A stretch of 11,445 bases of DNA, from positions 1-11,445 of the forward strand of contig DXJL01000080.1 of assembly GCA_019057635.1 (NCBI GenBank). Direction: 5' to 3'. Position numbers and translations under genes: made by a program. The notes under the pieces were generated by a model. The model searched no databases, was not told the DNA's origin, and worked only from the letters and a program-made list of their open reading frames with translations. Shown in pieces: positions 1 through 9,331 of this stretch; within the stretch, counting starts at the first letter, position 1, and each line of letters begins with the position of its first letter. Source of the stretch: Candidatus Heimdallarchaeota archaeon. Its GTDB lineage: Archaea > Asgardarchaeota > Heimdallarchaeia > Hodarchaeales > Hodarchaeaceae.

Positions 1-65
1 ATATATCCCCGTAACATTTCCAGAATATAATAAGTCCTGGGGTCTCTCTGCGGGAGTCTTTATTG

Positions 66-96
66 AAAAAAAGAGAAAAGGAGAAAAGGGAAAAAA
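66..96 (-). terminator. Oligo-T/pyrimidine tract, likely archaeal intrinsic terminator
   Basis: Minus strand reads TTTTTTCCCTTTTCTCCTTTTCTCTTTTTTT, about 90 nt downstream of the stop of the 186..341 small ORF. Confidence 0.5.
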
Positions 97-185
97 TGGC
101 CGTTGCTAGTCTTCCTAACCCGACTCAAATTATCAAAAGGCGTTATTTCAGATTTGAGAGGTTAATATGAAGATAAATTGCGATG

Positions 186-341
186 TTAATATGCAGATGA
201 ACCAATAATCTTCAGTGAGATTTTCTGATCCTCCGTACTCAGTTCAGCACGAAGGCTCGTGAATACGGGTCCAGTATAATTGAGATATTCGATAGTTGAC
301 TGTAGTCGTTCTTGTGAAGGTCGTAGTAAGGGACGTGCCAT
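186..341 (-). CDS. Small hypothetical protein, 51 aa (YLxYxGP-motif microprotein, copy B)
   Basis: Manual translation: MARPLLRPSQERLQSTIEYLNYTGPVFTSLRAELSTEDQKISLKIIGSSAY*. Below the ORF-track cutoff. A TATA-like CTTTTAATA lies 22 nt upstream of the ATG, and the motif is shared with the neighbouring ORF 417..575. Confidence 0.7.
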   Translation of the reverse strand: MARPLLRPSQERLQSTIEYLNYTGPVFTSLRAELSTEDQKISLKIIGSSAY

Positions 342-363
342 ATTAGAAATGTTGTTCTTGAGA

Positions 364-397
364 TATTAAAAGAATGGTTCATACGTAGGTAGTACGT
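364..397 (-). promoter_or_regulatory. Putative TATA box for a leaderless transcript of 186..341, with a short upstream palindrome
   Basis: CTTTTAATA on the minus strand (372..364) ends 22 nt before the ATG at 341. An ACGTA-N5-TACGT inverted repeat lies at 383..397. Confidence 0.4.
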
Positions 398-416
398 GGG
401 GAAGATAGTATTGGTG

Positions 417-575
417 TTATACCAAAGGAAAGAGAGGAGAGGATGATAAATCAGACGAAATTGGTGGAATTTCCTCAATTCTTCGTAAATAAAGAGGCCC
501 TTGGTATTTTAGATAGGCGAGAACTTCATTTAGATTACTTAGATTTATTGATTCTGTATCAATCATTTTCATCAT
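417..575 (-). CDS. Small hypothetical protein, 49-52 aa (YLxYxGP-motif microprotein, copy A)
   Basis: Manual translation: MMKMIDTESINLSNLNEVLAYLKYQGPLYLRRIEEIPPISSDLSSSPLFPLV*. In-frame ATGs at 575, 572 and 566. TATATAAA (601..594) lies 21 nt upstream of ATG 572. The motif is shared with 186..341. Confidence 0.7.
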   Translation of the reverse strand: MMKMIDTESINLSNLNEVLAYLKYQGPLYLRRIEEIPPISSDLSSSPLFPLV

Positions 576-593
576 CCATGATTCTGTATTTGG

Positions 594-601
594 TTTATAT
601 A
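594..601 (-). promoter_or_regulatory. Putative TATA box for the 417..575 microprotein gene
   Basis: TATATAAA on the minus strand, at leaderless-type spacing from the ATG cluster at 575/572/566. Confidence 0.45.
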
Positions 602-754
602 TTTAGAATCCCAAAAAATACTTAGAGGGGTTTATCTATTTGAATAATGTGAAAGTTAGTATAAAAACTCGTAGAGGGAGGTTTTTCTATCCTAATTAGT
701 GATTATTCATCCAATGAAGGACGATCTGTAGAAATCTCCAAGGATTATCTCGAC

Positions 755-777: not shown

Positions 778-2025
778 TTAGCTATTACTTAGGTATTCCC
801 TGATTGCAATAGCTGCTGCAGCCCCTTCACCAGCTGCTGCCACTGCTTGTTTCACTGAGCCGAAGCGACAATCCCCCGCTGCAAAAATCCCTTGGACTGA
901 GGATTGCTGTTGAGACGTGGTGATAAAACCTTGGGAATCAAGGTTAACTCCCTTTAGGAACTTTGTATTGGGTGATAATCCTACAAAAACAAAAATTCCA
1001 TCTGGATGATAATCTTTTACTTCTCCAGTTTCCGTATGCTTAACTCTAACAGCCTCAAGACTGTCCTCACCTAGTAGTTCAACAACTTTAGAATTTGCCC
1101 AAACTTCAATGCCTGATCGATCTCTTACTTTTTCCTGTAAAACAGGAGAAGCACGGGGTTCATTCCCACGGACGAGAATCGTCACATGATCAGCAAATTT
1201 CCCTTTCAGAAAAAGAGATTCTTCAAAAGCACTATTACCACCACCGATTACGAAAATCTTCCTATTTTTGTAGAAGAATCCGTCACAAGTGGCACAATAA
1301 TGTATACTTACTCCTAAAAGTGCGTCAGAACCCGGAACCACAAGCTGACGATAATTAGAACCAGTAGCAACAAGAACAGCTGAGCATGTAAATTCCTGAG
1401 ACTCAGTTTTTACGACTTTATACTGACATTCATCAAAGGAAGCATTAGGATGACAGGTACCCACGTTCAAGACTTTTTGAGGGGAGAGAATTTCAACCCC
1501 AAACCGTTCAGCCTGTTTTTTAACATTCTCAGCAAAATTTGCGCCCGTAATTCCCTCTGGAAACCCCGGAAAATTATCCAATCTGTTTGTGATGAACGCT
1601 TGTCCTCCAACCGTTGACTGTTCGATTACTAGCACGTCATATCCATCTCTAGCAAGATAAATCGCCGCAGTAAGACCCGCTGGTCCCGCTCCTATAATAA
1701 CAGTATGATAAAATGATTTTTTTGCTCTTTTTGCCAAGCCTAAGAAATCTGCGAGCTCAAAATTGCTGGGTTCCACAAATAATTTTCGCTCTCCATCCTT
1801 TATAACTTCAACAGCGGGTATTTTCCTTTTTTTTGTACCGAAAATAGCTTCGTTCGTGTCATACACAAATTGTAAAGCTTTCTCTCCTTCAACGTCTGGT
1901 TTTTCAATGTCAAACCAGCCATAATGAATACGCTGTTCACCTAAATATTTTTTTGTACGTCTACAATCACTACACCAGTTAGCTCCGTAAACATTAACTA
2001 TAGTTTGTTCTTCTGACATATTCAA
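778..2025 (-). CDS. trxB: Thioredoxin-disulfide reductase with fused N-terminal glutaredoxin/mycoredoxin-like domain
   Basis: N-terminal VYGANWCSDCRRTKKYL (CxxC, Grx-like). FAD-binding IIGAGPAGLTAA, redox centre YCATCDG, NAD(P)H-binding IGGGNSA and C-terminal GIFAAGD. The true start may be the ATG at 2019 (MSEEQ) rather than the TTG at 2025. Confidence 0.92.
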   Translation of the reverse strand: MNMSEEQTIVNVYGANWCSDCRRTKKYLGEQRIHYGWFDIEKPDVEGEKALQFVYDTNEAIFGTKKRKIPAVEVIKDGERKLFVEPSNFELADFLGLAKRAKKSFYHTVIIGAGPAGLTAAIYLARDGYDVLVIEQSTVGGQAFITNRLDNFPGFPEGITGANFAENVKKQAERFGVEILSPQKVLNVGTCHPNASFDECQYKVVKTESQEFTCSAVLVATGSNYRQLVVPGSDALLGVSIHYCATCDGFFYKNRKIFVIGGGNSAFEESLFLKGKFADHVTILVRGNEPRASPVLQEKVRDRSGIEVWANSKVVELLGEDSLEAVRVKHTETGEVKDYHPDGIFVFVGLSPNTKFLKGVNLDSQGFITTSQQQSSVQGIFAAGDCRFGSVKQAVAAAGEGAAAAIAIREYLSNS

Positions 2026-4090: not shown

Positions 4091-4564
4091 TTATTTTTTT
4101 AAAAGGGCTCGGGCTGCTGTGATATAGACATCTAAATTTCGCAAAGTCTCCTGTTGAAAGTTATGAATTGTTTCAGCAGTTTTTGTGTTATCATAGACAG
4201 CGCTGGCTTGTTGTAGGATTTTGATGTCTTTGATGAGTTTGGTAATATCTTTCTTTAATTTCTCATCTTTCTCGAAGGTCATCCCTCTTACTCTGACTAA
4301 TAAGGCTAAAGCATCAGTAAATTGTAGATCGTAAACTAAAATTAGCGCCCGAATGAATAAGCTTTGTGAAATGACCAACTGGGCATTATAATCAGCATTT
4401 CTGTCAATACGATTTAGGAACTGTATTGCAGTCTGAACTTGTCCTTCTTCTATGTATGCTTTCGCCAACATAAAGTTTCTAAAGTCACGTAGCTCCATAA
4501 AATTTTGGAGCGCGTTTTCTATACGTTGTAATGAAAGTCTTATTTCACCGTCAAGTAAAGCCAT
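4091..4564 (-). CDS. Hypothetical alpha-helical (TPR-like) protein, possibly an N-terminally truncated remnant
   Basis: 157-aa ORF with TPR-like helix pairs (LAKAYIEEGQVQTAIQFL, RALILVYDLQFTDALALL). Its stop abuts the tmk stop with no gap. Confidence 0.6.
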   Translation of the reverse strand: MALLDGEIRLSLQRIENALQNFMELRDFRNFMLAKAYIEEGQVQTAIQFLNRIDRNADYNAQLVISQSLFIRALILVYDLQFTDALALLVRVRGMTFEKDEKLKKDITKLIKDIKILQQASAVYDNTKTAETIHNFQQETLRNLDVYITAARALLKK

Positions 4565-6292: not shown

Positions 6293-9200
6293 CTATTTAC
6301 CTGATAACGTCTCCCAGTTTAATTTTTTAACTTCAGTAATCCAAGTTTTATTGACAAATAGGTGCATTTTATACCAAGTGGTTAAGCCAACAATTTCATC
6401 AACACAGGCTAAATCGGGGTTTGTCGTAAGCCATTTATAGGCTTCAGGATACATTTCAGCATACGGTGGTACACCTGTTCCTTTCTCTGAATCCCACCAG
6501 TGTCCCGTATGATTCACTATAACCCAGAAGTGTATATCGGGTAAATGGTTAGTGAAATAGTCATTCACATCAGAAGTTGAATTTGAAGAGAAAGGATAAT
6601 TACCTGTGTCCTTGACTTCGTATTCTAGATAATATCGAAGGGCAAATTGAGTACCTCCCTCATTTATTGCCCATGTACTATAATTATAATCCCCTCCATG
6701 ATTATTTATATAAATAGCCATCTCCTGGTATCGGAGATCGAATATTTGATTGTAATGGACATTAGTAGAGACATTTACTAACATCCCTGACATAGCGAGG
6801 GCAAGAATTATTGTAAGTTGAGGTTTAATCTTTGGTTTCAACCAGTACAACCCAACAATCAACAATATCAGTCCAACGAAAGTAGCTAGGGGAGCTCCAA
6901 ACTCCATCACTTCTCCGATCCATGAAAAATCTAATTTGAATAGCAGGTTTAGGAAATCATGGACTATATAATCGTATAATCGATACAACCCACCCCCTCC
7001 CCTAAACCATGCATCGATAAAGAATTTATATGCAAACCCAGCAGTAATGATTCCAGGAAACGTTTTCAGTACATAAAAGCAAAGAAAAATGAATGGGATT
7101 AGATAAATAGCGGCGACAAAAAGGTTTCTGAACAAAGAATTTAGATTTCCATTAGCCAAAAAAGCGGTGAGGGGAACGTAAACAAATGTAAATCCGATTT
7201 CTAAGAAAAAATATCCTCCAGCTAGCCCTTTTTCAACATTATCAACAGCTAGTAATCGCATTTTCTCATATGAATAGATAAACTCAAAACCTTTGGCTGC
7301 AATAGCAAGATAAGGGAGTACAAGGGGAATATAGTAATAATTCAACTGAAACATTGCGGGGAAGAAAACAAGAGGAATGACAAGTAACCAAGTGATCAGG
7401 GCAGAGCCCAACGCGGGATTACGACGTTCTGAAAAGAAAAATGCCCAGAGTCCAATTAGGAAGAATGGAAGCATGACAACCAATACGTAATCGTTTATTG
7501 CACCCCCTAAACTATCAGCTAAATTATACTTGGTTCCAGAAGTGTAACGCCACCCAATGTAATAATCAAAAAATAAAAAGGTATATGTAACGACATCAGG
7601 CTTATTAGGATCACCAGCAAGCTCTCCTGGGGTCCGTACCTCCCATGGAAAGTTCACAAGATTAGCATCGATATATTGTACCCAGGCAATAAAGGGATAG
7701 AAGCTGAGAATAATGACAATGAGGGTGATTCCAATAAACAGAATATGGGATGAGAAAATTGTTAGTTCTGCTTGAGAACGAATTCTTGCTTTAAGATTGA
7801 AAAATTTTATGAGCTTATTCTTAAGATGTGGATAGTAGGACAGTAAGGGAATTAGTAATAAGGAGATAGCAACACCCATTAACGTTATTGACAAAGCATT
7901 TCGATCAAAAACAAGTCCAAGCAGAAGTAATCCAACAAACCAAAACATCAACCAAATACCCATAATAATTAGGGGAAAACTGTCTATTAACTCGTAAATA
8001 AAACGAATGAAGGCTCTATCGGAGGAAATGAAATCTAATAACAACCCAAATGCAACTAATGCGAGAATAATTGTACCAATCGATCCTAATAATGCTCCGA
8101 TGAGTTCTAATAATGCTAGAACGAAGACCTCGTTGTTAAGTGCCTCTAGATTTTCTAGTGTTCCTTCTGATAGAAAGAATAAAATTCCTTTAATTATGGA
8201 CATATTATTCGAACTTAAAGCAGTTGCAAATTGTTTGAAAGCATCCTCTAATCGATTATAAAAAAGAGATACGATGATATTTCCCGCAAATGCTGCTAAT
8301 ACGCTCGTAATTCCAGTGAAAAATAACACAAGGTAGTTTCCTTCAACGAACTCATTTTTCCAAAACCGAAGAAACACAGTAAAACATGTAGAAGCGCTCA
8401 CGATAGCTATTATTAGACCAGCGACAAGAAGTTGATTGTAAATAACAGTAATAATAAATGAGATGACCAATGCAAGTAAGAATACAAAATACGGGAAAAG
8501 ATTGGCATAGGTTTGTTCTGAGGAAGAAGAATGTTCCTCATTGTCGGAGAAAGAAAGAGAAAATGATTCACGACTCTCATGTAGAGCAATTTTTAATTGA
8601 GAGAAATCAACATGCCGCTCTAAATATCTGAATACCAAATAGATGGCTATGGATGGTGCAATTAATACCCCTTGCCATGCTTTCGTCATGACATTTAGTA
8701 CATTAAGTATTCCTGTTAGTATGATTAATAAATAGCCTTTTTTCAGATTGTTATCAACAAATATCGCATCAATGGCGCGAATTCCTGTTAAAAAAACTAT
8801 AGATCCCATGAAAATAACAAAGGGGTCGATATATGCAGTTCGAGAATAGAAATTTAGAAATGAGGCTAGTGCAACCAGAAGCCCTGCTATAGCATGCGCG
8901 CTCTTAGTTTCTTTTTGATGACTGAACAAGAGGTATATCACTACCGCAAGACCAGCACCACCTATAGCATTCATGCCATTTGCCCCAAAAGTGCTTTTTC
9001 CAAAGATATTCATGAGGAGCGCGCCAAAAATGAAAGCAAAAGGAGGTTTATCAAATAATTGAAGGGTTGTATTATTCCCCCTATAATATAAAGGTAGGAA
9101 AGGATCTGATAACCCGTCAGCTATTCGTGAGGCAATGGAAACAAACCAACCTTCATCCCACATGTCAATAGACGAAGTATAAACTATCTTTAACCAAAAG

Positions 9201-9331
9201 GCTAAAAGACCTACAATCAGTAATAAACGATACCGTACAAAGTAGTCCCATAGTCTTACCGCTATCTTTTCTAACATTTGATTCTTCGTTGATTCTGGGA
9301 TTGGGTTTTGTTCCTCTTCTTGGGCAGTCAT
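6293..9331 (-). CDS. Large polytopic GT-C fold glycosyltransferase (ArnT/PMT-like, GT83/GT39 type)
   Basis: First TM helix followed by WDEGWF (DE motif), then FDKPPFAF, YSRTAYID and MTKAWQG. Many hydrophobic segments, YYYIPLVLP near the last core helices, and a soluble C-terminal domain with several N-x-S/T sequons. Confidence 0.8.
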   Translation of the reverse strand: MTAQEEEQNPIPESTKNQMLEKIAVRLWDYFVRYRLLLIVGLLAFWLKIVYTSSIDMWDEGWFVSIASRIADGLSDPFLPLYYRGNNTTLQLFDKPPFAFIFGALLMNIFGKSTFGANGMNAIGGAGLAVVIYLLFSHQKETKSAHAIAGLLVALASFLNFYSRTAYIDPFVIFMGSIVFLTGIRAIDAIFVDNNLKKGYLLIILTGILNVLNVMTKAWQGVLIAPSIAIYLVFRYLERHVDFSQLKIALHESRESFSLSFSDNEEHSSSSEQTYANLFPYFVFLLALVISFIITVIYNQLLVAGLIIAIVSASTCFTVFLRFWKNEFVEGNYLVLFFTGITSVLAAFAGNIIVSLFYNRLEDAFKQFATALSSNNMSIIKGILFFLSEGTLENLEALNNEVFVLALLELIGALLGSIGTIILALVAFGLLLDFISSDRAFIRFIYELIDSFPLIIMGIWLMFWFVGLLLLGLVFDRNALSITLMGVAISLLLIPLLSYYPHLKNKLIKFFNLKARIRSQAELTIFSSHILFIGITLIVIILSFYPFIAWVQYIDANLVNFPWEVRTPGELAGDPNKPDVVTYTFLFFDYYIGWRYTSGTKYNLADSLGGAINDYVLVVMLPFFLIGLWAFFFSERRNPALGSALITWLLVIPLVFFPAMFQLNYYYIPLVLPYLAIAAKGFEFIYSYEKMRLLAVDNVEKGLAGGYFFLEIGFTFVYVPLTAFLANGNLNSLFRNLFVAAIYLIPFIFLCFYVLKTFPGIITAGFAYKFFIDAWFRGGGGLYRLYDYIVHDFLNLLFKLDFSWIGEVMEFGAPLATFVGLILLIVGLYWLKPKIKPQLTIILALAMSGMLVNVSTNVHYNQIFDLRYQEMAIYINNHGGDYNYSTWAINEGGTQFALRYYLEYEVKDTGNYPFSSNSTSDVNDYFTNHLPDIHFWVIVNHTGHWWDSEKGTGVPPYAEMYPEAYKWLTTNPDLACVDEIVGLTTWYKMHLFVNKTWITEVKKLNWETLSGK

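Follow-up and report, generated by a model that had tools for sequence, protein, structure and literature searches.

Three tandem micro-ORFs, A, B and C, belong by sequence to a previously undescribed microprotein family of one Hodarchaeales genus (Asgard archaea), whose conserved helix-motif block may be a docking module that binds a larger protein. Family proteins are 42-60 aa long and share the core L-x3-[IL]-x-[YF]-L-[NK]-[YF]-x-G-[PV]-[LIV]-[FY]. Two of the genes lie in the window, the whole 11,445-nucleotide stretch of DNA analysed here, and the third lies on a neighbouring contig of the same assembly (G000):

Positions 186-341, minus strand: ORF A, a predicted 51-aa microprotein (stop included in the coordinates) with a helix at residues ~10-20, the motif E-Y-L-N-Y-T-G-P-V-F at residues 18-27 and the conserved C-terminus ..I-I-G-S-S-A-Y.
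Positions 417-575, minus strand: ORF B, a predicted 52-aa microprotein (stop included) with the motif A-Y-L-K-Y-Q-G-P-L-Y and a Ser/Pro-rich tail.
G000:C141:35167-35334, minus strand: copy C, just left of the window, 55 aa long and with a motif that reads E-Y-L-N-Y-N-G-V-L-Y.

An earlier sequence-only reading of the window had claimed the two minus-strand ORFs, an ungapped alignment between them and a motif at almost the same distance from each start. Both ORFs were found at the positions listed. BLASTP recovered the same 16 residues (6/16 identities, 9/16 positives, E = 6e-4 in a single comparison), and the motif tyrosine is Y19 in ORF A and, in ORF B, Y21 counted from the first Met or Y18 counted from Met 566. 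Taken by itself, the A-versus-B similarity is weak, marginal evidence. For ORF B, translation probably begins at the later Met (564-566), which would make the protein 49 aa long, because the orthologue at locus L010 begins there and GGATGATGA precedes this Met. The description of both tails as divergent and Ser/Pro-rich held for ORF B but less so for ORF A, whose tail is conserved among orthologues and ends ..SSA[Y/F].

The true locus, as reconstructed from overlapping contigs, comprises three tandem genes, of which the window covers two. The G000 assembly consists of 214 contigs (3.19-Mb genome, 91.6% complete, 3.2% contamination), and searching it showed that the end of contig C141 carries near-copies of ORF A (94% aa identity) and ORF B (89%), alongside the more divergent copy C. 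C141:35373-35965 matches window positions 2-533 at 89-93% DNA identity over ~590 bases. In the sister genome G002, a single contig (locus L007) carries an aldo-keto reductase gene on the plus strand followed by C, A, B and a Grx-thioredoxin-reductase fusion gene, all four on the minus strand. Since G002 has both flanks on one contig, the window contig and C141 are placed as neighbouring, overlapping ends of one locus. The overlap probably stems from two co-assembled strain variants, with the assembly broken on strain variation; a segmental duplication is a possible alternative. A search for further copies to the left of position 1, as the sequence-only reading had proposed, thus yielded the third tandem copy.

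Comparative analysis indicates that ORFs A, B and C are protein-coding and under purifying selection. We applied the Nei-Gojobori method to A, B and C orthologues from the five closest genomes (15, 10 and 10 pairs). dN/dS was 0.05-0.24 in all pairs with dS of at least 0.13 (33 of 35), and dS reached 2.3. ORF A orthologues from five close genomes gave 0.05-0.23 at dS of at least 0.36, and ORF B orthologues gave 0.06-0.21. The remaining two pairs, the window's A against its C141 and G002 copies, have only 7 differences and gave 0.44-0.45. Substitutions pile up at third codon positions (for example 5/2/15, 12/2/22 and 3/1/18). Invariant columns in a four-genome DNA alignment of the whole inter-gene region amount to 55% (B), 67% (A) and 68% (C) of the ORFs, against 32%, 10%, 35% and 8% of the four spacers. 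Among genus matches to a 30-sequence profile, every frame is open save G006:C41:18354-18470, which has one TAA. A motif regex run on the six-frame translation of the 3.19-Mb genome gave five hits, and all five are these micro-ORFs (two in the window, three on C141).

These data bear directly on whether the ORFs arose by chance or mark a non-coding element, for example an sRNA or promoter array. That reading can point to the A-versus-B similarity, weak by itself at E = 6e-4, but it runs against purifying selection in these very frames, frames open throughout the genus, ORFs better conserved than spacers and a motif found in no other frame of the genome; moreover, an alternative overlapping 79-aa frame at 239-478 is split into 47-aa and 39-aa pieces in the C141 copy. 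We consider it extremely improbable, and in our view selection, open frames and the contrast between ORFs and spacers have already refuted it. Selection on a real paralogous microprotein family, as the sequence-only reading had supposed, is borne out by frames kept in 20 of 22 genus genomes together with the third-position bias and the greater conservation of ORFs than spacers. An RNA run with a word share of 0.11 gave two short contigs on the window, at 680-815 and 1334-1488, and none on 1-679.

At the sensitivity of our searches, the family is restricted to a single genus. A profile built from the four G000 copies matched all 21 other genomes of the genus at E ≤ 1, many at E < 1e-5, in open frames mostly of 40-75 aa; across 19 more distant relatives the best match reached only E = 0.18, and several matches contain stops. 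The 30-sequence profile matched 20 of 22 genus genomes at E ≤ 0.01, a count over kin that are not independent of one another; the two without a match are 71% and 80% complete. Positive genomes hold 2-5 matches each, with tandem arrays of 2-3 at a syntenic site. Sampling the phylum gave matches at E ≤ 1e-3 in 20 of 400 genomes, all from one of the 85 genera sampled, and in none of the 378 other Asgard genomes. Because 50-residue queries have limited reach, "genus-restricted" here means absent elsewhere at the sensitivity of these searches, and low search power may partly produce the apparent restriction.

Wider searches returned small proteins of the same kind. A HMMER search of 1.84 billion representative proteins found 42 matches at E ≤ 1e-3, and for 13 the E-value was no higher than 1e-10. 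Of the 42, 41 are predicted proteins of 37-66 aa and one has 120 aa, so gene callers elsewhere already predict family members. The suggestion that both ORFs might be fragments of one longer known protein, which the sequence-only reading had set against its own proposal, failed on this size distribution and on the lack of a match to any known family. A pattern scan of 185,579 species genomes produced 13 matches, 10 of which tblastn confirmed; nine of the ten confirmed loci are micro-ORF arrays, seven in MAGs titled Hodarchaeota/Heimdallarchaeota (for example B3_Heim) and two in Hermodarchaeota/Promethearchaeota. Metagenome contigs gave 111 pattern matches with three confirmed, and viral contigs 34 with none confirmed. 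We discarded as a relative one gene from a MAG labelled Hydrothermarchaeota (L035:5092-9828, plus strand), where the motif lies inside a 1578-aa repeat protein as E-Y-L-N-Y-T-G-P within apparent GGW-containing alpha-alpha repeats.

The family matches no usable entry in the databases searched. At E ≤ 10, no Pfam family matched ORF A or ORF B, and copy C had a single hit, at chance level. Of 30 family members, none matched Pfam at E ≤ 0.01, none matched NCBIfam, and one matched PHROGs at E = 0.0077, which is not a usable match. The best PDB sequence match had E = 0.94, and the best ESM Atlas score for ORF A was 0.84, below the level reached by shuffled sequences. The excerpts returned by a literature search on the motif and on Asgard/Hodarchaeales small proteins hold no description of the family.

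Each of A, B and C has its own predicted promoter, and we read the three as separately transcribed. The signals around A and B in the window are as follows:

Positions 363-371, minus strand: predicted TATA box of ORF A, TTTTAATAT, its end 21 nt upstream of the ATG.
Positions 378-395, minus strand: operator-like direct repeat GTACTAC-N4-GTATGAA, upstream of the ORF A TATA box.
Positions 594-604, minus strand: predicted TATA box of ORF B, AAATATATAAA, its end 18 nt upstream of the first ATG (575) and 27 nt upstream of Met 566.
Positions 66-96, minus strand: T-rich tracts (T7 and T6 on that strand), ~90-120 nt downstream of the ORF A stop.

The sequence-only reading had placed a TATA box about 21-22 nt upstream of each ORF; both ORFs do have one, and the spacing holds for A at 21 nt but not for B at 18 nt (27 nt from Met 566). 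The ORF A element recurs 21-24 nt upstream in three of the four close orthologues shown (L008, L009 and L010), while the A-type gene of L007 has the weaker element TAAATAGTAT. The ORF B box is conserved in all five B-type upstream regions shown, as AATATATAA or AATATAAAA. Set against the usual archaeal distance from TATA box to start, the spacing suggests that the ORF A mRNA is leaderless or nearly so. In more distant A-type genes the TATA box stands ~40 nt from the start, which GTGAGGA precedes by 6-7 nt, and a GAGG ribosome-binding site stands 6-9 nt before the ATG in all five C-type genes and in 8 of 18 other, more distant genes. Oligo-T termination is established in archaea, and the T-rich tracts at 66-96 are possibly such a terminator.

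The direct repeat looks like a transcription-factor site or operator. The consensus among relatives is GTAYTAC-N4/5-(G)TATCAC. The repeat sits 4-7 nt upstream of the TATA box in A-type genes and is present in the window, in L007, L008, L009, L010, L011, L013, L014 and L022, and in the second copies of L016 and L019. With at most one mismatch allowed, a scan for the repeat in the window's own genome turned up 10 scattered sites; none of them precedes a TATA box and family gene, and no regulon was evident.

Conservation is concentrated in a single block of ~17 residues, L-x3-[IL]-x-[YF]-L-[NK]-[YF]-x-G-[PV]-[LIV]-[FY]-x-R, the sole strongly constrained part of the proteins. We counted residues over 96 distinct sequences; 127 of 130 collected sequences fit the regex that sets the register, and because that regex fixes the two Leu at positions 0 and 7, counts at both are circular. 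Preceded by a polar, Gln/Glu-rich lead-in, the block reads:

Position 0: L (fixed by the regex).
Positions 1-2: variable.
Position 3: [TIAV].
Position 4: [IL] in 92/96.
Position 5: [ED].
Position 6: [YF] in 85/96.
Position 7: L (fixed by the regex).
Position 8: [NK] in 88/96, N in 75/96.
Position 9: [YF] in 96/96, Y in 90/96.
Position 10: variable.
Position 11: G in 94/96.
Position 12: [PV] in 89/96, P in 74/96.
Position 13: [LIV] in 96/96.
Position 14: [FY] in 77/96.
Position 15: variable.
Position 16: R in 52/96.

The tail beyond has a median of 23 residues, 15% Ser and a net charge near zero. Cys occurs in only 11 of the 96 distinct sequences. A-type proteins keep the C-terminus [VI]-x-S-S-A-[FY] across the genus (14 sequences, one of which ends in H). 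Many members also carry a semi-conserved second stretch, [IL]-P-[SP]-D-x-[ED], 4-8 residues past the motif; it is absent from the A, B and C copies of the window's genome.

The block is predicted to form an amphipathic helix with N-Y-x-G-P as its cap and a short run of hydrophobic residues after it; the remainder is predicted to be disordered. This picture comes from one medium-confidence AlphaFold2 model of ORF A (30-row alignment, mean pLDDT 68), which has a single helix at residues 10-20, pLDDT of 89 at residues 11-20, 83 at 21-30 and ~50 beyond, and no DSSP secondary structure after residue 20. The winged-helix first helix shows an L-x-Y-L-x3-G-P pattern, and the family shares this local pattern at a helix end; we rejected a winged-helix domain for lack of a Pfam match at E ≤ 10, for a model with one helix rather than three plus a wing, and for a length of ~50 aa, which is too short. 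A type I toxin or small membrane protein was likewise rejected: inspecting the sequences by eye, we found no transmembrane stretch, as hydrophobic residues nowhere run to ~18 in a row and the tails have a polar or charged character.

The chain might instead fold on its own, as a mini-domain in which hydrophobic and Pro residues pack on the tyrosines of a G-P-capped helix and serve, for example, ligand or nucleic-acid binding. The family may resemble helix-Gly-Pro-capped miniproteins of the Trp-cage type, pLDDT stays at 83 past the helix, at residues 21-30, and many members carry [IL]-P-[SP]-D-x-[ED] shortly after the motif. Yet the model has no secondary structure after residue 20, its pLDDT falls to ~50 from residue 31, and the Pro-containing stretch is missing from the A, B and C copies. 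An autonomous fold is, on balance, quite unlikely.

Docking on a partner is our preferred account of the block, at a probability of roughly 45%. A one-helix chain of ~50 residues cannot bury its invariant Leu, Ile, Tyr and Phe alone, which makes docking of the helix-motif block on a larger protein the most likely explanation. The block would dock in a groove of a larger cellular partner, and the divergent tails would give each paralogue its own effect or a second contact, the A-type tails ending ..SSA[F/Y]. Separate promoters, one of them with an operator-like repeat, suggest that the paralogues may be deployed under different conditions. The helix-plus-motif docking peptide, one of the options raised by the sequence-only reading, fits the predicted structure.

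Natural fusions favour the docking-module account, since the block is reused in them and so appears to be a portable module. In one form the motif is N-terminal in 97-107-aa proteins, which continue with a low-complexity linker and end in a CxxC..CxxC zinc ribbon (L015 and L053). In the other it is C-terminal in 120-126-aa helical proteins (L053 and P0042), the L053 gene encoding ~95 helical residues and then the motif. The mapped examples are:

L015:1285-1605, minus strand: zinc-ribbon fusion.
L053:4815-5114, minus strand: zinc-ribbon fusion.
L053:5150-5527, minus strand: helical-protein fusion, neighbouring the zinc-ribbon form.

A search of the window's own genome found neither form. AlphaFold2 on the 126-aa fused form with a two-row alignment gave a mean pLDDT of 57.5, with the motif region below 50, and is uninformative on motif packing. 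A more specific proposal, to which we assign a low probability, is that the microproteins are interchangeable adaptors docking on one hub, with tails that would regulate the hub or recruit different clients; a zinc ribbon or a helical domain would then take the place of the tail in the two fused forms.

Alternatively, the paralogues may bind one another, forming homo- or hetero-oligomers through the amphipathic helix and acting, with no hub involved, as a small protein with a structural, chaperone-like or stress role. Two or three paralogue types are kept side by side in nearly all genomes, hydrophobic helix positions i, i+3/4 and i+7 suit helix-helix packing, and Hsp90 (HtpG) and oxidative-stress genes lie nearby in several genomes. 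However, the model helix spans only ~11 residues, short for a stable coiled coil, and the most invariant residues (N, Y, G and P) sit at the helix cap rather than on a heptad face. We regard self-association as unlikely.

Gene neighbourhoods offer no functional lead. We mapped 26 loci with ~5-kb flanks; one is the discarded L035, leaving 25 family loci. The main array sits between a thymidylate kinase gene (Tmk) and either an aldo-keto reductase gene or a gene for an 850-aa PKD-domain protein, and beyond Tmk lie genes for a 157-aa TPR-like protein, a 96-aa parvulin and a PMT_2-like protein of ~1010-1070 aa. Among main-array loci, Tmk is found in 12 and the reductase is adjacent in nine; an acyl-CoA dehydrogenase and a Grx-TrxR fusion are inserted only in the window's subclade. 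A single family copy stands beside a PHP-domain gene at five loci and between an AdoHcy-hydrolase block and a TruA/NOG1 block at two, fused forms account for two more, and the remaining loci are short or partial contigs or have other neighbours. Neighbours vary from one of the four kinds of locus to the next and have common housekeeping roles, so the surroundings hint at no function. A leader peptide or uORF was ruled out, since the array's final gene and the aldo-keto reductase gene are convergent and each copy has its own TATA box.

Several features of this neighbourhood are recorded in their own right. A redox/stress cluster surrounds the array (window 778-2025, minus strand, and C141:28000-35000), with genes for the Grx-TrxR fusion, a second TrxR-like protein, HtpG (Hsp90), a flavodiiron-like protein, the aldo-keto reductase and the acyl-CoA dehydrogenase. 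A 43-aa ORF with two CxxC pairs, rubredoxin-like by eye, overlaps the start of the flavodiiron-like protein. Window positions 6293-9331 (minus strand) encode a 1012-aa protein without a Pfam hit, whose 1072-aa orthologue in G010 matches PMT_2 (dolichyl-phosphate-mannose mannosyltransferase-like) over residues 96-241. In G005, an RRXRR/HNH-endonuclease gene (L055:3677-4999, plus strand) is inserted between Tmk and the array, and the Tmk frame there is 90 aa.

Context also weighs on the idea of a modified-peptide precursor, a further option of the sequence-only reading. Here the proteins would be precursors of a RiPP or a peptide-derived redox cofactor, with the block as leader or recognition element and the tail as core, the A-type core including the invariant C-terminal aromatic. 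Like RiPP precursors, the family consists of small tandem paralogues with a conserved, recognition-like N-terminal block and more variable C-terminal parts; A-type proteins end in the conserved ..SSA[F/Y], redox enzymes occupy the main locus (aldo-keto reductase, Grx-TrxR fusion, acyl-CoA dehydrogenase and flavodiiron protein), and the genome has one gene for a PqqD-like peptide-recognition protein (C55:2380-2721). That gene, however, lies on another contig among genes for secreted proteins, a search of the 92%-complete genome for a SPASM domain came up empty, and Cys occurs in only 11/96 sequences. Unlike the case of RiPP precursors, no modifying enzyme, protease or exporter is encoded nearby: we found no radical-SAM, YcaO, lanthipeptide-type, protease or exporter/transporter gene within ~5 kb of the 25 loci, with Pfam scans run on 39 representative neighbours, or in the window. 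The modifying enzymes that the sequence-only reading thought might flank the array were therefore seen neither in the window nor in the ~5-kb flanks examined. The tails give a mixed picture as a core: B-type proteins and other copies have variable tails, whereas A-type proteins conserve both tail and C-terminus, which are thus not hypervariable. With no modifying enzyme found inside ~5 kb at the loci examined, the evidence speaks against a modified-peptide precursor, which we rate very unlikely.

For the docking-module account, one comparison is with peptides that dock on scaffolds. TPR domains bind carboxy-terminal peptides, and short linear motifs dock on repeat scaffolds. Like such peptides, the family has a short conserved block in a disordered chain, its A-type members keep a conserved free C-terminus, and it has a TPR-like neighbour with a similarly genus-restricted distribution, the link being one of neighbourhood only:

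Positions 4091-4564, minus strand: gene for the predicted all-helical 157-aa TPR-like protein, a constant neighbour of the main array.

No Pfam family reaches the cut-off for this protein; TPR families match it several times below threshold (residues ~16-60), and the Atlas returned TPR-like look-alikes at 0.93-0.95. A single-sequence search recovered it from 18 of 22 genomes of the genus, and the 378 others yielded one weak hit. A complex prediction pairing it with ORF A, both given as alignments, returned a score of 0.00 (mark 0.32), a result that weighs neither way on binding.

The sequence family and its motif are new, and a lineage-specific archaeal small protein that presumably acts by binding has precedents. 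Some small proteins of Methanosarcina mazei and Haloferax volcanii reportedly act by binding enzymes. Archaeal small proteins of up to 70 aa have been catalogued in these two species by Ribo-seq and peptidomics, in reports of which we cite excerpts (PMC11456600, PMC10117724). As far as those excerpts go, the family resembles the catalogued proteins in comprising stand-alone genes of ~50 codons with their own promoters, without an enzymatic domain and presumed to bind larger proteins; unlike the small proteins described there, it has no sequence similarity to any described family, is confined to one Asgard genus and forms tandem multi-paralogue arrays.

The family offers a tractable handle on peptide binding in its lineage. 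Hodarchaeales is the archaeal order placed nearest eukaryotes in current trees, and we know of almost nothing reported on its small proteome. A sharp motif, clear orthology groups, separate promoters and natural fusions together provide that handle within a lineage-specific family. Without a hub the result would still be an annotation gain: the genes, three at this locus and 2-5 in each genome, are easily missed under size cut-offs. Short-linear-motif regulation is usually regarded as eukaryotic in style. If a hub partner exists, motif-based regulation would have evolved de novo in Hodarchaeales; and if the microproteins are interchangeable adaptors, a self-contained short-linear-motif regulatory layer would have arisen within the order.
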